A DNA stretch of 64,000 nt from Spirochaetia bacterium (GTDB lineage Bacteria > Spirochaetota > Spirochaetia > SZUA-6 > Bin103): the NCBI GenBank assembly GCA_965203055.1, contig OZ241863.1, positions 224,001 to 288,000 on the forward strand. The letters are read 5' to 3'. The stretch's first letter is position 1; each line of letters begins with the position of its first letter. The position numbers and the translations under genes are program-made. Shown one piece after another: positions 8,168 through 51,324 of the stretch. The notes below the pieces were generated by a model. It was not told the DNA's origin. It saw only the letters and a list, made by a program, of their open reading frames with translations, and searched no databases.

Positions 8168-9415
8168 GTGTTATTGCGTTTCAGCGTCTCCAATCACCTT
8201 TCACTTCGAGATTCGCAGGAACTGCTGCTCACGACGTCATCACTGAAGGACAGGACCGAGGGCTTGATCGACTGCGCAGCCGCGCCGAGCGGATCGCTCT
8301 TGCCCGCCGTGGTAGTCTTCGGCGCCAACGCGTCGGGCAAGAGCAATCTCGTCCATGCGCTCAGGGCTATGCGGCGAATGGTCCTGTTCTCTCATACTCA
8401 CGGAGATGCGAGTGGCGGGGTGCCGCGCCATGCCTTCAGACTGGACGCCTCCTACTCCGACAAGCCAAGCCGCTTCGAGATTGATTTCGTCCATCAAGGC
8501 GTGCGCTATCACTATGGGTTCGAAGTGGACGACGCAGCATTCTTGTCGGAGTGGCTATACGCCATTCCCAAGTCACACCGCCGCCTCATGTTCGAACGTG
8601 AAGGTAACGATTTTCGCTTCGGGCGCGAGCTAAAGGGACGAAACAATACCATCGCAGAATTGACTAGATCGAATAGCTTGTATCTATCGGCCGCCACACA
8701 AAACAGCCATGAACAAATCTCAAGTCTGTACGACTACCTCAGAGATATGAGCTGTTATATGAACATTGGCACAAGTAATGAATATTGGGTGAGACACAAG
8801 GAAATAGATACCCGAGTGATTGAGTTTCTTGGAAGACTTGACACTGGAATATGTGATTACCGGCGTCGTGAAATTGATCTTACTGATGAATCAAGAGCGA
8901 CGCTTAGAGAAGTAATGGAGAGATTGACAAATGCTGCGGTAGACTTGACCTCGGGCAAGCAGGTCACCGTCGAACTTGCTCACCAGAGCAGAGACGGAGA
9001 GCCCGTCTACCTTGATTTTGGTATGGAAAGCTCGGGCACTCGGCGACTGCTGGTGATGTTGAGTCTAGCGTACCGTGCGCTCGACGCCGGAACGCCTCTA
9101 GTGATCGACGAACTCGACGTGAGTTTGCACACTCTGGCCGGGGCAGCGGTCCTGCAGTTGTTCAGCTCACCGGAGACGAATCCCAAAGGTGCGCAGCTTG
9201 TTGCAACGGTCCATGACACTAACCTGATGGGCTGGTCTGGACTGCGGCGCGATCAGATCTGGTTCACCGAAAAGGACGAGGACGGAGCGACGCTGCTCTA
9301 TCCGCTGACCGACATTCGGACGCGCCGGAGCGATGACCTGGAGAAGGGGTACCTGCAGGGCCGCTACGGCGCAGTACCCTTCGACGACCCGATTTCCGCA
9401 CTTGGCTCGAACTAG
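8168..9415 (+). CDS. RloA/AbiLi-like AAA(21) ATPase
   Basis: Walker A GANASGKSN, ESSGT signature, Walker B IDELDVSLH, QLVATVH, LRRDQIWFTEK and YLQGRYGAVP; lower GC than the flanks. Confidence 0.9.
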   Translation: MLLRFSVSNHLSLRDSQELLLTTSSLKDRTEGLIDCAAAPSGSLLPAVVVFGANASGKSNLVHALRAMRRMVLFSHTHGDASGGVPRHAFRLDASYSDKPSRFEIDFVHQGVRYHYGFEVDDAAFLSEWLYAIPKSHRRLMFEREGNDFRFGRELKGRNNTIAELTRSNSLYLSAATQNSHEQISSLYDYLRDMSCYMNIGTSNEYWVRHKEIDTRVIEFLGRLDTGICDYRRREIDLTDESRATLREVMERLTNAAVDLTSGKQVTVELAHQSRDGEPVYLDFGMESSGTRRLLVMLSLAYRALDAGTPLVIDELDVSLHTLAGAAVLQLFSSPETNPKGAQLVATVHDTNLMGWSGLRRDQIWFTEKDEDGATLLYPLTDIRTRRSDDLEKGYLQGRYGAVPFDDPISALGSN

Positions 9416-10058
9416 ACGCAAACGGGGCGTTCCTTCCCTCGGTCGGCGCAAAGCTCAGCAAGGATCGAAATGGCGATTCGTGTTGTACTGTGAAGGCAGT
9501 AATACGGAATCATCCTATTTCAACGCCTTCAAGGAAACCTGTAAGAACACGCTTATCGGAGTGGAGGTTATTCCCGCAGCGGGGGTTCCCTACACGATTG
9601 CGAACAAAGCTGTGGAACGAGTCCGATCTCAGCGGCTCGGTGGCCGCAGAAACTCGTTCGAAAAGAACCAGGTTTGGGCGGTATTCGACCGCGATGAGCA
9701 TCCTCAATTTGAGGATGCTGTCGCGCTGTGCAGAAGTAACGGTGTCTGTGTCGGTCGTTCCAATCCATGTTTCGAGCTGTGGCTGATCCTGCATGAAAGG
9801 GATCACAATAGGTATGAGACACGTCACCGAATGCAGTCGATACTCAGTAATCTACGCCCCGAGTATGACAAGAGGCGGGGGAAGACTCCTGATTGCGAAG
9901 AAATGATCAGCCGAGTTGAGGATGCCGAACAGCGCGCCGAGCAACTATTGCTCCGCCGCCAGGAGGAGGGCAAGCCATACGGTAATCCCTCCACTACGGT
10001 CGGCCGGCTTACGCGCGCGATACGAACTGCTGACAATCGCGTGCGGGCACGGACCTGA
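9402..10058 (+). CDS. RloB-family protein (AbiLii-like)
   Basis: VLYCEG...E..YF, VWAVFDRD, SNPCFELWLILH and NPSTTV motifs; TTG start at 9402 overlaps the ATPase stop. Confidence 0.9.
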   Translation: MARTRRKRGVPSLGRRKAQQGSKWRFVLYCEGSNTESSYFNAFKETCKNTLIGVEVIPAAGVPYTIANKAVERVRSQRLGGRRNSFEKNQVWAVFDRDEHPQFEDAVALCRSNGVCVGRSNPCFELWLILHERDHNRYETRHRMQSILSNLRPEYDKRRGKTPDCEEMISRVEDAEQRAEQLLLRRQEEGKPYGNPSTTVGRLTRAIRTADNRVRART

Positions 10059-10113
10059 CGCTACGGACTCCGCCGGTTAGCGTTCTCCGGGGCGTGTAGA
10101 GTGCTTAGCTAGC

Positions 10114-10494
10114 TTAGCCGACGGGCTCCAGCCATTCGGTGGCCTCGCCCAGGTTGATCGCCAGATGGGTCATGGGGCCGTCCACGGTCGCGCCGTGCCA
10201 ATGTTTCTCGCCGCCCTCGAAGCGGACGATGTCGCCGGCCGCGGCCACCACCGGCGGCTCGCCCCACACCTGCGCCGTGCAGCGCCCGGTCACGATGAAC
10301 AGCAGTTGCACGTCGCTATGGGTGTGCCAGTGGGTGGCGGCGCCGGCCGCGAACGACACGCGGTATACCCGGCCGCGGGCGGCAGGATCGGCAGCCAGGA
10401 AGCGCTGCAGGGTGGCGCCGCCCGTAAAGTGCTCCGTTTCCGCCAGCTCGACGGTGCGCCCGGCGGCGACAAGCAGTTCCATGCCGCGCAGCAT
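10114..10494 (-). CDS. Cupin-domain protein
   Basis: WHTHSDVQLL and GEKHWHGA cupin motifs, MTHLAI. Confidence 0.85.
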   Translation of the reverse strand: MLRGMELLVAAGRTVELAETEHFTGGATLQRFLAADPAARGRVYRVSFAAGAATHWHTHSDVQLLFIVTGRCTAQVWGEPPVVAAAGDIVRFEGGEKHWHGATVDGPMTHLAINLGEATEWLEPVG

Positions 10495-10527
10495 AGCAGA
10501 TCTGCCGCGCCGTCCGCAAGATCAACG

Positions 10528-10563
10528 TAGGTAAGTAGGTAGGTAGGTAGATAGGTAGGTAGG
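10528..10563 (+). repeat. (TAGG)9 tetranucleotide tandem array (7 perfect units, plus TAAG and TAGA)
   Basis: Read directly; abuts the IS-type inverted repeat that starts at 10564. Confidence 0.95.
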
Positions 10564-10657
10564 GGGCGCATTTCCAAATGTAGGTACGCGTCAGGCCGCT
10601 TGGCGGCCAAGCTCCGTCCTAGTCCCAGTGTAAGATGACGTTTCTCGGCGATCTTGA

Positions 10658-12004
10658 TCACCGGTCTACCGGCACCTCACGATCCTCGCCGGGGCGCCCA
10701 AATCCGGCGCCGACGTGGCGGTAGCGGTGATGGGCGGCGCACAGCAGGCGGAGATTGTTCGGCTCGGCGGCGCCGCCGCGGGCATACGGCACCACGTGAT
10801 CGATCTGCAGCAGGTGTTGCGAGCCGCAGCGGCGCCCGCTGGTGCGGTCCACGTAGCGGCAGCGGCCCCGGTCGCGCCGCCACACCTCGCGCTTGACCGC
10901 CGCCGGGATGGCGCGGCCGGTCGCGCCGCCGGCCTTCGCTGGCGAAGTTTCGGTCCGCGCCGCCGTCGCAGCCGGCCGGCCGAGGCGCCGCGTCTTCGGC
11001 GCCGAAGTGGTGTCGGTCGCCGGCTTCGCTGCCGAACTGTCCGGGCGGTCAGCGGCTTGGTCTCCCGGCTGCGCCGGCGCCTGAGCCGATACCTTCGCCG
11101 CCGAAGGAGCGGCGCTGTCCGCGCCGGCCTCCTGCTTCGCTGCCGAAGCGGCGCCGCAAGCCGAGGCCGCCTGCGTCTTCGGCGCCGAAGTCTGCTCGGC
11201 GCCTTTGGCCGGCGCGGTGCGCCGCCCGCGCGGCGGCCGGGCCGGATCGTGACGGTCGAGCCCTTCCCGCACCAGCCGCCCCATGAGCTGCCCCATCGTC
11301 ATGCGTGGTTCGACGTGGGACAGGAGGCCCTTGATCTGCTCCAAGCCGCGCCGGCACTCATCGTCGATCACCGCCTTGAGTTCCCAGCGCCCGCCGCCCA
11401 GGGGCCGCACCCGATCAGCCGGCGCCGCCAGCTCCGGGTCCACCTCGGCCAGCAACTGCATCACCTCCCGGCTGCTCTTGCCGGACGCCCGCTCCACCAG
11501 CTCCCGCCGCGCCTCCGAGTCCAGCACCGGCTCCGGCGCCGACACCGGCTTCCGCTCCGCCGGCCGCGGCGGCGCCGAGCCCTCCTGCGACTGAGCGGCA
11601 GCCCCGAACCCGGTCCCGCCCGGCGCGCTACGCGCCGCCCGCTCCTTCTTGCGCTCCTGCCGGTCGAAGGCGTTCTGCAACTGCGCGGCCGCGTTCAGCG
11701 TCATCGTGCCACTCTGCAGGCGTTCGCGCACGCCCTCGACGTCAGCGCAGAGCCGCATCGCCTTGATGCGCCGCCACGCCGCGGCGTCGCTGTAACCCAG
11801 TTCGCGCACCGCGTAATCGAACAGGCTCGAGAACCCGCGGCGCAGATACAGGCGGCGCTTCTGAATCTCGCGCAGGTGGTCGATCACGACTACTTCAAGA
11901 TGGTGTTCGATGCCGGAAAGTTCCTTGGTCCGCTCCAGCAAGCGGTCGTCTGAGAGGGCGGATACGGTAGTGGTGACGGCCCCGTCTGGAGCATGTTTGT
12001 TCAT
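10658..12004 (-). CDS. HNH endonuclease with a DUF222-like N-terminal domain and a repetitive S(A/P)(A/P)K linker
   Basis: C-terminal RDRGRC...C...QIDHVVPYARGG...NNLRLLCAAHH is an HNH fold; the N-terminal GFSSLFDY..ELGYS..AAWRR pattern is DUF222-like. Confidence 0.85.
   Translation of the reverse strand: MNKHAPDGAVTTTVSALSDDRLLERTKELSGIEHHLEVVVIDHLREIQKRRLYLRRGFSSLFDYAVRELGYSDAAAWRRIKAMRLCADVEGVRERLQSGTMTLNAAAQLQNAFDRQERKKERAARSAPGGTGFGAAAQSQEGSAPPRPAERKPVSAPEPVLDSEARRELVERASGKSSREVMQLLAEVDPELAAPADRVRPLGGGRWELKAVIDDECRRGLEQIKGLLSHVEPRMTMGQLMGRLVREGLDRHDPARPPRGRRTAPAKGAEQTSAPKTQAASACGAASAAKQEAGADSAAPSAAKVSAQAPAQPGDQAADRPDSSAAKPATDTTSAPKTRRLGRPAATAARTETSPAKAGGATGRAIPAAVKREVWRRDRGRCRYVDRTSGRRCGSQHLLQIDHVVPYARGGAAEPNNLRLLCAAHHRYRHVGAGFGRPGEDREVPVDR
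10934..11190. repeat. Six interspaced 14-bp quasi-palindromes CTTCG-N4-CGAA(G/C) inside the HNH gene
   Basis: Copies start at 10934, 10994, 11024, 11093, 11135 and 11177; spacers are 46, 16, 55, 28 and 28 nt. Confidence 0.9.
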
Positions 12005-12126
12005 GACATAAGTACAATCATGGAAACTACTTGAGTCAAGTTATTCGGCCCGGAAGATGCCACCTGAGGGCGTGACTCGGCGGGCATTCCAAGCGGCTGC
12101 CGAGACGAGAATGTCGCCGGCGTCGA

Positions 12127-12254
12127 GCGGCAGGGTTTCTTCTTACGGCCCCAGGCGGCCTCGTCGATGGAATGTCGCTCCAGCCGCAGGCGTCGAGCGT
12201 GGCGCGGTACTTGTAGTACGCCTGTCCGGCGGCTTCGAGGGCGGGATCGGGTAC
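12127..12254 (-). pseudogene. Deleted remnant of the C-terminus of a type IIG/IIL (Eco57I/MmeI-like) restriction-modification enzyme
   Basis: Minus-strand peptides PDPALEAAGQAYYKYRAT, LDACGWSDIP and, in a shifted frame, IDEAAWGRKKKPCR recall successive blocks of that family; recognised from memory only. Confidence 0.5.
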
Positions 12255-12306
12255 AACAAATTGGAAGTGCGCCCGTAGGTACCTGGGAAGTAGCACTCTC
12301 TCTTGG

Positions 12307-12561
12307 TCATGGATCGTCAGTATAGCCGTCCGGCGCCTCTACCGGGCGGGCGAAGTCTGGCCGCTCCTGTTCTTCGTCGAAGGCGTACCAGCCGTCGCGG
12401 GCGAGGACGGCCAAGCTGCCGTCCGGCAGCCGCACCATCAAGTCCCACTGCTCCGGCGGCAGGGGGACCCTCTTGATATGCTCCTTCATCTCCTTGATGG
12501 TGAGGGGGCGGCGGCGGCAGGGGCGTCCGTGGTAGTCGCTGTCTACGTTCTCGTCAGCCAT
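12307..12561 (-). CDS. Hypothetical 84-aa protein
   Basis: ATG at 12561 (MADENVDSDY...), coding-like composition, no recognised motif. Confidence 0.5.
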   Translation of the reverse strand: MADENVDSDYHGRPCRRRPLTIKEMKEHIKRVPLPPEQWDLMVRLPDGSLAVLARDGWYAFDEEQERPDFARPVEAPDGYTDDP

Positions 12562-12597
12562 CCGACCCGCTCGAACAGCATATATCGAACTGCAGCG

Positions 12598-12681
12598 CCA
12601 GGTACAGCAGAGAGGTCGCGGCAGCTCGACCGCCGGCTCCTCCAGGAGGTGGAGCTCGTCCCAACCGGCGTCCGGGCTCAT
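12598..12681 (-). pseudogene. N-terminal stub of a type I restriction subunit HsdR
   Basis: MSPDAGWDELHLLEEPAVEL resembles HsdR N-termini and starts in an ATGA overlap with the hsdS stop; the rest is absent. Confidence 0.5.
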
Positions 12682-13937
12682 GCGGCTTCCGTATTCGGAG
12701 TGACGCGAAGTTCACCATCGAGAAGTAGGGGCATAAGGCCGCGCTTGGCCTCGGTCAATTTCGCCACGCGCTCCTGATTGACTTCAATGACGTGGTCTAC
12801 GCTGGATAGTACATGGACAATCTGCTCCTGCTCAGCAAGTGGAGGAACCAGCACGCCACAGGTGAGAAACTTGCTCTTGCTGACGATTGGCACCGCGGTC
12901 ATTCCCGCAAGGCCAACAAGTGTGCCGGATGCGAAAGACAAAGCATAGTAGAGATATTCTGACAAAACAGCGTCACCGGTTATGACGCTGTTGATCTGCT
13001 GATTCGTGCAGCATCTTTCTACGGCTATACCGACCTTACCAATGGTCCCGATGCACGTTACCATGACTGACCCCGGTGGTATTTCTCGCACCTGAGCAAG
13101 ACCATCTTCGGAAACATGGCGGCCGGTAGTGCTGACTCTCTTGGCTTTTCCAAGATCGGTTGGCGTAACGAAGGGAATCTCGCCGTTCCAGAAGGTATGA
13201 TTGCTAGTGCTCGGCGTACTTCCGGTTACTACCTCTCCAATCTCCGCAATGGTTTTACGATCCCAGCCGTCGGGAATATCACCTGCTTCTATCTGCTTGA
13301 ACCGCGTATGTCGTCCCGGCAGGCCGCGTGTCAGCATTACCTGCATCAGGCCGCGCTTGACGATCTGCGCTTGGTCGATGACCGCCTGGGTCTTCTCGAT
13401 GGCGTCGTCTATTGACGAAAGGATCGCGGCAATCTTGCGCTGTTCCGGGATTGAGGGAAGGGGTATCCTTACACGATTGATGTCAGCCGCACGTAAGCCG
13501 AATCGCGTAATGCCGTTTGCATACATCTGAAACTGCCGCTTGGCACTTTTCTCGCTGAGGGCATAGTGAAGAAACCGTCCGTCCAGATTGGCTTTCAGTG
13601 GACGAAGAATCGCAAGATGATATCCGCATACCAAGTTCGGTACTTCATCACCTACTACCGCGGGCACTCCGATATCGTCAGGGGTCTCTGAATCCTTCGT
13701 GATGATTACATCACCGACTCTCAATCGACAATTCTGAATCTCCCGTTCAGTAGCTGTCGCCTCCATATAGTCCATGTCAGCACGAATGACGTTGTGATTG
13801 TATACGTCGGAGTAGTTGCAGAGCCTTACAGAGCGCTCTCCGTCTACGGTCTTCTTGTCAACGCCGCTGAGACGCAGATCGACGACGTCAGCCAACGCAG
13901 TCCAAGGCCAACTCTCATTATCCTGGTTACCTCTCAC
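12678..13937 (-). CDS. hsdS: Type I restriction-modification specificity subunit (two TRDs), orphan in this window
   Basis: Conserved repeats IPLPSIPEQRKIAAILSSID...KRGLMQ and VPPLAEQEQIVHVLSSVD...KRGLM; TGSTPST and TNQQINS; lower GC. Confidence 0.93.
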   Translation of the reverse strand: MRGNQDNESWPWTALADVVDLRLSGVDKKTVDGERSVRLCNYSDVYNHNVIRADMDYMEATATEREIQNCRLRVGDVIITKDSETPDDIGVPAVVGDEVPNLVCGYHLAILRPLKANLDGRFLHYALSEKSAKRQFQMYANGITRFGLRAADINRVRIPLPSIPEQRKIAAILSSIDDAIEKTQAVIDQAQIVKRGLMQVMLTRGLPGRHTRFKQIEAGDIPDGWDRKTIAEIGEVVTGSTPSTSNHTFWNGEIPFVTPTDLGKAKRVSTTGRHVSEDGLAQVREIPPGSVMVTCIGTIGKVGIAVERCCTNQQINSVITGDAVLSEYLYYALSFASGTLVGLAGMTAVPIVSKSKFLTCGVLVPPLAEQEQIVHVLSSVDHVIEVNQERVAKLTEAKRGLMPLLLDGELRVTPNTEAA

Positions 13938-13943
13938 GCTGAC

Positions 13944-13971
13944 ATAATACTATCGGCGCCATCAGTGGCAA
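13944..13971 (-). promoter_or_regulatory. Putative promoter for a leaderless hsdS mRNA
   Basis: Minus strand reads TTGCCA-N16-TATTAT-N6-GTG. Confidence 0.55.
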
Positions 13972-14002
13972 CTGCGGCTCCTGTCCATGCTTCGGGCGCG
14001 GT

Positions 14003-49703: not shown

Positions 49704-49722
49704 CCCAGCCGGCCCAGCCGTC

Positions 49723-51245
49723 GGGCGCACTTCCAATTTGTAGGTAGGCCCAAATAGAGAAGCCCTCCCAGCGACAGGTGATGTAACATCAGGCCGTCAC
49801 TGGGAGGGCAACATATGTGTGATTCATTGGTAACCGAGATTCTCAACTACTGCAAGGCCACCTGTGGTCTCGAACTGGGCCGCGCTAGCGGTCCCCACGA
49901 CCTGTTGCGGGCAGAAATGAGTCTCCTCAAGTGCTTGGTGCGCCTGTGCCGCGCTGCCATGGGGGAGTGGTTCAAGGAACTGGGCCGCGATTACCGCGGC
50001 GCCACGGTGCAGCGCAACGGGGTGTCGTATCGGTTTGTCGGCCACCGCTCCAAGACCCTGCACGGACTGTTCGGGACGGTACCCTACGAACGCGCCTACT
50101 ACGCCAGCGGTAGCGGCCAGGGCTGGGCGCCGTTGGATGAGCGGCTCGGCATCAAGCGCGGCCATACGCCGGGCTGCCAGTACTTTCTGAGTCAGTTCGT
50201 AGCGCGCCAGGCGCACGCAGAGAGTCTGCGGCAGTTTCACGAGGTGTTCCGCGCCGACGGCGGGGAGCTGGTGTCGGAGAAGAAGGCGTTCACGATGGTG
50301 CAGGAGGTAACGGAGGGGTTGGAACGGCAGCGCCAGCAGGAGGTGGACAACTACCAGCAGACTGCGGCGGGGCCGGAGCTGCACGAGTCGATAGGCGGGA
50401 CGGTGGCGGTGTGCATCGACGCGGGGAAGATGCCGGTGCGCGGCAAGGAGCGGGTAGATGATGCCGGGAAGAAGCGCTACGAGCGGGAGTACCGGGACGC
50501 CAAGGTGGCGGTGGTGGCGGCGGTGGAGTGGGACGCTGAGGAGCAGGAGGCGCAGTGCAGCAGCAAGCCGAGCTACGTGGCGGCGAGCGAGCATGCGGAC
50601 CGGTTCTTTCCGCGCATCGAAGTGGAGCTGAAACGGCGCTGCGGAGAGGGGGCGGCGCGGCAACTGGTAGTGCTGGCCGACGGGGCGGGATGGATTTGGG
50701 AGCGGGCGAAGACCTGGGCGGCAGGGGGGCTGCGGGTGTGGTACATCCTGGATTTCTGGCACGCCTGCGAGCATCTCGCGGAGGTGAGTCGGAGCGTCTA
50801 CGGGGAGGGGAGCAAGCAGGCAGAGGAATGCTTTCGGAGGTGGCGGACGATGCTGCGCGGCAGTCGGGTGGGCGAAGTGATAGAGGAGCTGGAGCAGTTG
50901 CGCGACGGCGTGGGGTTGAGTGCCCGGCAGCGGCACGAGGTGCAGGGGGAGATCAACTACTTGAGGAGCAACCAGGGAAGGATGGACTACCGGCGGTACC
51001 GGCGGGAGGGGCTGCCGATCGGCAGTGGGACGGTAGAGAGTACGTGCAAGAACATGGTGGGGGCGCGGCTGAAGGGGAGCGGGATGATCTGGTCGTTGGG
51101 CGGGGCGCAGGGGATGCTGCAGCTCTGCACCTCGGTGAAGAGCGGGCGGTTCAAAAGGGACTACGCGAGTCTGCTGTCCGCCTCGGTGCCGCAGGAGGCC
51201 CAGCCACAGGCCGCCTGACGCTACCTACGTTTTGGAAGTGCGCCC
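49723..51245 (+). mobile_element. Intact 1523-bp insertion sequence, ISKra4/ISLre2 (Mutator-like DDE) type
   Basis: 25-bp TIRs GGGCGCACTTCCAATTTGTAGGTAG and (reverse complement) GGGCGCACTTCCAAAACGTAGGTAG, 22/25 identical; perfect 9-bp TSD CCAGCCGTC at 49714-49722 and 51246-51254. Confidence 0.95.
49815..51218 (+). CDS. ISKra4/ISLre2-type DDE transposase
   Basis: CIDAG, LADGAGWIW, LDFWHACEHL, GLPIGSGTVES and RLKGSGMIW. Confidence 0.93.
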   Translation: MCDSLVTEILNYCKATCGLELGRASGPHDLLRAEMSLLKCLVRLCRAAMGEWFKELGRDYRGATVQRNGVSYRFVGHRSKTLHGLFGTVPYERAYYASGSGQGWAPLDERLGIKRGHTPGCQYFLSQFVARQAHAESLRQFHEVFRADGGELVSEKKAFTMVQEVTEGLERQRQQEVDNYQQTAAGPELHESIGGTVAVCIDAGKMPVRGKERVDDAGKKRYEREYRDAKVAVVAAVEWDAEEQEAQCSSKPSYVAASEHADRFFPRIEVELKRRCGEGAARQLVVLADGAGWIWERAKTWAAGGLRVWYILDFWHACEHLAEVSRSVYGEGSKQAEECFRRWRTMLRGSRVGEVIEELEQLRDGVGLSARQRHEVQGEINYLRSNQGRMDYRRYRREGLPIGSGTVESTCKNMVGARLKGSGMIWSLGGAQGMLQLCTSVKSGRFKRDYASLLSASVPQEAQPQAA

Positions 51246-51324
51246 CCAGCCGTCGGCGCGGTTGACCTTGCGCCCGTTATCTGATCTTATTTCGGTCGTC
51301 ACAGGGTGACGGAGAGGTACAGCG

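Follow-up and report, generated by a model that had tools for sequence, protein, structure and literature searches.

How does a gene for an HNH nuclease come to lie between the two ends of an insertion sequence (IS) with no transposase inside them? Our study addresses this question for the 1.7-kb segment at 10564-12274 of a 64,000-nucleotide stretch of DNA from a Spirochaetia bacterium (the window; contig OZ241863.1, positions 224,001 to 288,000), which lies in a single contig of 4,557,819 bp with 68.75% G+C. The segment consists of the inward-facing ends of an IS found at 49723-51245 of the same window, set around a gene for a 448-residue HNH protein. On balance we think it probable that it is a cassette derived from an ISKra4-family IS and mobilised in trans, with a nuclease gene as cargo that is itself selfish or useful.

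Both ends of the segment can be aligned with those of the IS. At 12256-12274 (End B), all 19 nt of the minus strand are identical to the IS left end at 49723-49741, and about 24 nt are common to End B and that left end; with up to three mismatches the left-end motif matches three times in the window, against 0.02 expected. At the opposite side, 10564-10599 (End A) can be aligned to the right end of the IS in reverse complement; its minus strand contains CAA GCG GCC TGA (Gln-Ala-Ala-stop), where the IS has CAG GCC GCC TGA. The family form of End A, a consensus from 37 matches, is GGGCGCATTTCCAAAATGTAGGTAAGCGTCAGGCCGC, and its agreement with the IS right end extends beyond 33 nt, broken by two mismatches and one indel. 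The flanks GTAGGTAGG and GTAGGTACC are identical at seven of nine positions, the left one inside a GTAG-type tetranucleotide run, while the intact IS is framed by a perfect 9-bp duplication, CCAGCCGTC. A preliminary description of this DNA had proposed the identity of each end, their inward orientation around a 448-residue HNH gene (the intact open reading frame (ORF) at 10658-12004 on the minus strand) and a decayed 9-bp target-site duplication, and the alignments, the codons and the Pfam HNH match bear these proposals out. A tblastn search for the transposase gave no match at 234564-236274, the contig coordinates of the cassette, and Pfam matched HNH alone in the cassette ORFs (the HNH protein and an 86-residue ORF at 12036-12296), the remaining listed ORFs being other-frame overlaps of the HNH gene. 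With inward IS-type ends, no transposase inside and a decayed target duplication of its partner's length, the segment is of the type of the mobile insertion cassette (MIC), probably mobilised in trans.

The ISKra4 family has terminal inverted repeats (TIRs) and makes target duplications of 8-9 bp. The IS in the window shows both features, and its transposase scores 214.6 bits against the ISKra4 model NF033572 of NCBIfam (cut-off 205). The main text of Guerillot et al. (2014, PMC3942029) places ISKra4 as the p-MULT4 group of prokaryotic Mutator-like transposases, and because of this place in the Mutator superfamily the earlier label 'Mutator-like' is acceptable. Eight full copies of the IS are present in the genome, together with one internally deleted copy (396959-398214) and a fragment of 88.5% identity; six of the full copies are identical, a seventh departs from them at 2 nt, and the copy in the window is a variant with 27 differences. 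Perfect duplications of 8 or 9 bp accompany eight of the nine paired copies, the ninth matching at 8/9, and the copy at 623721-625243 lies within a cassette. Judged from its sequence, the product of 49815-51218 is a plausible candidate for the transposase that acted in trans, or else is closely related to that enzyme.

The cassette is one of a large family. The end motif occurs 63 times in the genome and its reversed control not at all; a blastn search with the cassette as query gave dozens of copies of about 86-92% identity, and tblastn with the HNH protein finds 55 loci. Three loci shorter than 200 bp were dropped and the other 52 classified, the copy counts resting on BLAST thresholds: both ends (a 3'-side End A and a 5'-side End B or the related End C described below) are present at 22, End A only at 15, End B or C only at 7 and neither at 8, and at least one end is therefore kept at 44 of the 52. 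The unit from End A to End B recurs whole, and homology between copies breaks off at these ends. Target duplications were scored in the 15 two-ended cassettes whose termini could be refined, with randomly paired left and right flanks as the control. Six of the 15 have a duplication of at least 7/8 or at least 8/9, against 0.5% of mismatched pairings, and nine have a match of at least 75%, against 1.4%. Four duplications are perfect over 8-9 bp and differ from one another (CAACGAATG, GCCTACGCA, GCCGCCGGG and ACACGGTG); the lengths equal those made by the IS. Thus the claim that the segment is a non-autonomous IS derivative with an HNH passenger stands. The same observations bear on a chance pile-up, in which two unrelated truncated IS insertions would bracket an independently placed HNH gene. 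Such an origin would suit the imperfect 7/9 duplication of the window copy, its position in a microsatellite and the variability of the surrounding interval (10521-13997) relative to two related genomes, G008 and G010; yet a whole unit recurring at 22 two-ended loci with its homology bounded by the ends, four perfect duplications, and the recurrence of the arrangement with different ISKra4-family ISs in two genomes leave it hardly any credence.

Longer elements suggest how the cassette was formed. Inward of End B, the cassette carries what is left of the 3' part of a gene, a decayed stretch that once encoded the C-terminus of a protein of 1,305-1,350 residues. The product of this gene matches the PADLOC model DrmMI over its full length (1,275 bits) and has Pfam Eco57I/MmeI domains. 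Eight copies of this DrmMI/type IIG-like gene are present, two of which lie within TIR-bounded long elements with the order End A, HNH, DrmMI/type IIG-like gene, End C, the last being similar to the IS left end over about 50 nt. The long form at 1396529-1405390 is interrupted by an insertion that appears to encode an IstB-like protein, and that at 2835451-2838909 is partly deleted. The existence of these elements implies that the 1.7-kb cassette is an internal-deletion derivative. We propose that the ancestor was a TIR-bounded element with a DrmMI/type IIG-like gene followed by the HNH gene, and that an internal deletion cut the large gene down to about 210 bp, which lie with the HNH gene between IRL-type and IRR-type ends. 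An ISKra4-type DDE transposase acting in trans would then recognise these ends and insert the unit with 8-9-bp duplications, giving rise to about 40 copies. The HNH cargo, with its own promoter and a leaderless start, would be held intact in many family copies by selection and would ride the cassette as a selfish or host-useful gene, without being needed for the cassette to move.

Other derivatives of the same ends are present. A 5.2-kb composite at 3066010-3071193 comprises a deleted cassette of 630 bp, 2.9 kb of unrelated genes and a 1.6-kb cassette, and because one outer 9/9 duplication, AGTGCCCGC, is common to its parts it must have moved as a unit; its 2.9-kb interior (L077) holds a 204-residue ORF resembling a PIN-type gene and a gene for a large repeat protein. 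There is also a 531-bp derivative like a MITE, that is, a miniature, gene-less transposon derivative. Of the eight copies of the DrmMI/type IIG-like gene (G000:C1 980288-984340, 2594736-2598683, 4383968-4387885 and five more), those that are not within TIR-bounded elements resemble the other copies only from a few tens of bases upstream of the start codon to the stop codon. A third type of end shares its first 15 nt with the others (GGGCGCACTTCCAAA...GTGTTGGTGACTGCC); this type, found at G000:C1 1281227, 1727358 and 4102300 (L118-L120), precedes a repeated unit of about 0.93 kb that encodes a Uma2-family endonuclease (Pfam E 3.5e-18) and has more than 15 diverged copies, several adjoining cassette or IS ends; on these sequence matches, this predicted endonuclease is a second nuclease family tied to the ends. 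At G000:C1 2269811 (L121), a left-end-type TIR that agrees with End B over 21 nt is followed by unrelated genes, one of them for an AAA_14 ATPase, and this locus may be one more IS derivative that carries cargo.

The cargo is a three-domain protein in which Pfam HNH, at residues 392-429, is the sole family above its gathering cut-off. An N-domain (residues 13-126; 11627-11968), a middle domain (160-262; 11219-11527) and the HNH domain (364-430; 10715-10915) are connected by low-complexity linkers. An alignment of 19 sequences (A1) has conserved blocks at residues 10-118, 160-262 and 364-430, and D402, H403, N417, H425, H426 and three cysteines are invariant in all 19. An AlphaFold model has pLDDT values above 90 in the N-domain and is confident for the HNH domain, with the middle domain lower. 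The modelled HNH fold resembles the HNH domains of IscB, McrA, Cap5 and Cas9 (Z 6-7.4), and a Foldseek search matched this domain alone, weakly. The modelled N-terminal region resembles the DNA-binding domains of ParB, Spo0J and KorB with Z scores of 6.8-7.6, values that are common for helical models: for the N-domain, Spo0J gives Z 6.9 (rmsd 3.2 Å, 107 residues aligned) and KorB Z 6.8 (3.2 Å, 110 aligned), while an unrelated helical protein gives Z 8.0. The helical N-domain may be a DNA binder of the ParB/KorB type. Residues 207-258 resemble a ribbon-helix-helix in the full-length model (Z 4.5-6), where a domain-only model predicts helix. A sequence profile search of the PDB matched no solved chain to the protein. 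With 875 clusters (50% identity) at E<=1e-30, this is a large family. A promoter, TTGACT-17 nt-TATACT, was called in another copy (L076), and as the ATG follows 6 nt after the -10 box, a leaderless mRNA is predicted. A 32-nt degenerate form of this promoter motif matches 22 of 117 fetched loci; the promoter scanner made no call in the window copy, whose -10 box reads TGTACT.

Several identities for the HNH gene were considered and did not fit. The protein had been called DUF222-like, a label that Pfam does not bear out: PF02720 has no match at E<=0.01, neither in the protein nor elsewhere in this genome, and with a cut-off of 24.4 bits the scores of four among 12 remote relatives (16.7-21.2 bits) fall short. 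A protein atlas gave a 'DUF222' cluster (score 0.94) in which 12% of members carry the family, which is a lead only. The protein does not match an IscB/OMEGA nuclease: NF040563 scores 24.4 bits against a cut-off of 175, over the HNH region only, and no RuvC domain was found; an Rfam scan for a guide RNA gave one chance-level match and hence no known RNA, though a novel one may exist. A free-standing homing endonuclease gene is at odds with flanks and duplications that vary between copies, with no single conserved recognition site. PADLOC gave weak nuclease matches only, and a search of plasmid records gave no match.

Related genomes show how widely the association extends. The HNH protein has matches in 21 of the 23 further genomes from its bacterial family, at tens per genome, and the transposase in 16 of the 23; in 17 genomes of other families in the order, the HNH protein has two weak matches only. 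Genome G003 has five complete cassettes and one partial, with an HNH protein 50% identical to that of the window (A1), ends of the GGGTGCATTC type, 8-9-bp duplications (TGCTACAGT, CGATCAACC and ACGGGCCC) and about 140 bp of a transposase C-terminus; its own ISKra4 IS, with a transposase 54% identical to that in the window, is bounded by the same ends. In G010, the HNH cassettes measure about 2.07 kb; their ends are of the GGGTGCGAACGCCGAAAGCGGTATTGA type and their duplications are CCGCGCCCC (9/9) and ATCCGGCC (8/8), with both ends present at three of ten sampled loci; their first 29 nt (IRL) are the left end of a different IS, whose 434-residue ISKra4-like transposase scores 193.7 bits against the ISKra4 model, just under the cut-off. 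G011 shares the cassette family of the present genome (G000), copies from the two interleaving in the tree.

A maximum-likelihood tree was built from 27 HNH proteins, with 30 loci labelled and three left out for having no ORF under the filter. The three cassette-borne HNH clades are separate, and each stands beside copies without recognised ends, meaning that none of the three known end types is present. The HNH comparison gives 50% between the G000 and G010 cassettes and 42% between G003 and G010, and that of the transposases gives 54% and about 35%, which the HNH values do not track. This mismatch and the separate clades speak for three or more separate associations and against one partnership whose members diverged together, and they indicate that within this bacterial family HNH genes came to lie between ends of the ISKra4 type on no fewer than three occasions. 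As the cassettes in other genomes were found by following HNH, this recurrence is partly a product of ascertainment bias.

The same genomes hold many HNH genes outside such cassettes. Among eight sampled loci in G011, an end is kept at three; the other five (L058-L062) are bare repeats running from the promoter -35 box to near the stop codon, with about 50 bp more upstream of the promoter in three of the five, and this bare subfamily has no recognisable ends. G005 has 10 IS copies and 50 HNH matches with one end-motif match outside the IS copies, and therefore shows no sign of cassettes with these ends. The HNH copies of G019 have only the ORF in common, and none of the three known end types was found at those of G012, G017 and G019-G023; a generic search for inverted repeats returned GC-rich noise only and missed its positive control. 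In the present genome, then, most HNH copies have ends, and the family is also abundant without recognised ends. Multicopy HNH genes in 21 of 23 other genomes, often lacking recognised ends, and the bare units at five of eight G011 loci could mean that the HNH protein itself is the mobiliser, the cassette being autonomous and its IS-like ends a matter of descent only. TIRs and 8-9-bp duplications of the same length as those of a DDE IS are, however, the signature of DDE transposition, the cassettes of G003 and G010 bear the ends of their own genome's IS, and we know of no HNH-only transposase; we therefore give this explanation only a small chance.

Mobilisation in trans by an ISKra4 transposase, probably from an earlier generation of the present IS, is what we infer from these comparisons, and several findings weigh against it or against the cargo being idle. 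The first is age. The 16 intact HNH ORFs analysed (from 20 loci giving a single full-length high-scoring pair) are 92.4-95.7% identical to one another, with no close pair, while six IS copies are identical. The cassette burst is thus old, much older than the IS burst, and no recent movement of cassettes by the present IS can be seen. It follows that the transposase 39 kb away, presented earlier as the probable mobiliser, stands as a plausible relative of the mobiliser only; that copy is moreover the 27-difference variant. The second is that no empty site, insertion polymorphism or transposition event was seen in any comparison made, including the search for the empty-site alleles that had been suggested. 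Over 9800-13000, no contig of four public runs spans the cassette; its right junction is covered by contigs of two runs from different studies, and elsewhere coverage breaks at the repeat. The genes flanking 10521-13997 are conserved in G008 and G010, where the interval is 39 bp and 1,256 bp with another gene, respectively; the whole island differs, and there is accordingly no precise empty site there. For the copy at 968884 the flanks map to different places in G015, G014 and G011, for that at 3324926 the left flank alone is matched, in G015 and G014, and among 24 flank pairs examined for paralogous empty sites there is no clean case. The third is that a search of G011 with the window transposase found no ISKra4 transposase.

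Two further findings of this kind concern the cargo itself. Pairwise dN/dS among the 16 ORFs is 0.16 in the N-domain, 0.38 in the middle domain and 0.37 in the HNH domain, and about 0.9-1.0 in the low-complexity linker, which serves as an internal control. Private changes, defined relative to these 16 copies only, number 70 synonymous and 59 non-synonymous in the three domains (omega 0.30); picking stop-free copies does not itself bias missense counts. The domains of the HNH protein are under purifying selection. Selection on private changes across many copies is unexpected for idle cargo, and HNH could act in cis to the benefit of the element. In addition, all three partner ISs are ISKra4, which hints at specificity and not random capture, a point tempered by the ascertainment bias.

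A rival explanation is a true partnership, in which HNH raises the spread or retention of the cassette as TnpB and IscB do in IS200/IS605 elements, guided by protein and not by RNA. The cuts of the nuclease might fall at element ends, donor sites or empty sites, with repair then copying the element, or HNH might finish the cleavage of strands for the DDE enzyme. Purifying selection on all three folded domains, private changes included, fits this proposal, as do catalytic residues invariant in 19 of 19 sequences, three separate HNH lineages each paired with an ISKra4-family IS and with no other IS family, about 44 end-bearing loci against eight full IS copies, and a predicted HNH fold closest to the HNH domains of IscB, Cas9 and McrA. 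Against it, the autonomous ISs lack HNH; the duplicated target sequences are diverse, so that one protein could hardly recognise every empty site; HNH is intact in G011, where no transposase was found, and in units of promoter plus ORF; G005 combines 50 HNH matches and 10 IS copies with one end-motif match outside the ISs; and Rfam found no known RNA. We consider the partnership possible but doubtful, and favour the trans-mobilised cassette whose nuclease gene serves itself or the host. With the same reserve, we raise the tentative idea of a recurrent functional alliance between ISKra4-family transposons and a three-domain HNH protein, a protein-guided nuclease that biases its own inheritance or copy number. 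If true, it would parallel, for DDE transposons, the drive that TnpB and IscB give to IS200/IS605 elements, and would explain why cassettes exceed the IS by about 5:1 and why coding is kept in many copies.

The cassette falls within known kinds of element, the mobile insertion cassette and the ISC-like, nuclease-bearing non-autonomous transposon. MICs make target duplications and have an autonomous partner IS in the same genome, features shared by the present cassette. In the accounts we draw on, the MICs (MIC231 of the Bacillus cereus group and the Tn3-derived MICs of Xanthomonas) likewise have passenger genes flanked by IS-type repeats without a transposase; unlike in those accounts, the partner here is of the ISKra4 family, the cargo is a nuclease present at about 40 copies under selection, and the cargo family occurs in cassettes of three ISs. 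ISC elements, as described by Kapitonov et al. (2016, PMC4810608), are also transposase-less, with an HNH-containing nuclease as their sole gene and ends in common with autonomous ISs, and trans mobilisation was proposed for them. In that description they depend on a Y1 transposase and have palindromic ends, no target duplication, and an IscB with RuvC and a guide RNA, whereas the present cassette has the TIRs and 8-9-bp duplications of a DDE transposase, and no RuvC or known RNA was found. Guerillot et al. (2014, PMC3942029) note extra genes, without an assigned function, in four ISKra4 elements; these p-MULT4 elements have the same transposase family but retain the transposase, and 'HNH' is absent from the main text of that paper. 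Our literature search found no description of an HNH cassette with ISKra4 ends, though table S1 of PMC3942029, on the extra genes of the four ISKra4 elements, could bear on the point. The REP13E12/DUF222-HNH repeat genes of mycobacteria, as portrayed in PMC10589994, are also multicopy HNH genes with a helical N-terminus and an unexplained spread; the present protein differs in having no Pfam DUF222 match, sub-threshold matches occurring in remote relatives only. KolobokP, in the accounts we draw on, likewise allies a DDE-type transposon with a His-Me (HNH-like) nuclease, and a second, nuclease-driven route of propagation has been proposed for it; unlike the cassette it is eukaryotic, with both genes in one element and long terminal direct repeats.

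What sets the present case apart is the repeated link between ISs of a DDE family (Mutator superfamily) and another kind of HNH nuclease, apparently protein-only, on cassettes that have reached tens of copies per genome and are still under selection. The transposon-borne nucleases TnpB and IscB drive the persistence of their transposons and are the source of CRISPR effectors, and to our knowledge all nuclease-assisted cases are IS200/IS605-type elements. If the nuclease helps the cassette, the spread of transposons with the aid of a nuclease would have been invented a second time, independently; if it gives no help, the cassette is a clear example in which one selfish element, a nuclease gene, hitch-hikes on another.

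Table 1. Features of the cassette and of its partner IS, in window coordinates.
Feature	Coordinates	Strand	Basis or remark
Tetranucleotide run GTAG/GTAA	10525..10563	.	Adjoins the cassette; last 9 nt (10555-10563) are GTAGGTAGG, left copy of the decayed duplication
End A: IRR-type terminal inverted repeat with last three codons and stop of the lost ISKra4 transposase	10564..10599	+	Alignment
HNH nuclease gene, intact, 448 aa	10658..12004	-	ORF, Pfam HNH, alignment A1, model
Family promoter TTGACT-17 nt-TATACT	12011..12039	-	Window copy has -10 box TGTACT
Decayed C-terminal remnant of DrmMI/type IIG RM-like gene	12046..12255	-	tblastn, long forms, ORF 12036-12296
End B: IRL-type terminal inverted repeat	12256..12274	-	19/19 identical to IS left end
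Right copy of the decayed target duplication, GTAGGTACC	12275..12283	.	7/9 match to 10555-10563
ISKra4-family IS, 1,523 bp	49723..51245	+	9-bp duplication CCAGCCGTC at 49714-49722 and 51246-51254
ISKra4-family DDE transposase, 467 aa	49815..51218	+	NF033572, Pfam UPF0236

The cassette may sit in a defence-type island (window 8168-10058 and 12678-13937), judging from its neighbours: a 415-residue ORF suggestive of an ATPase beside a 241-residue ORF, and a 419-residue ORF that resembles a lone type I specificity (HsdS-like) subunit. Microsatellites with units of 4-5 nt, namely (GTAG)n, (GTCA)n, (CAGGA)n and (GCTG)n, adjoin several cassette or IS ends, at window 10525-10563, at G000:C1 4152292 and 328559-328573, and at L095 2720-2731 and 4170-4200; they may reflect a target preference or be a by-product of transposition.

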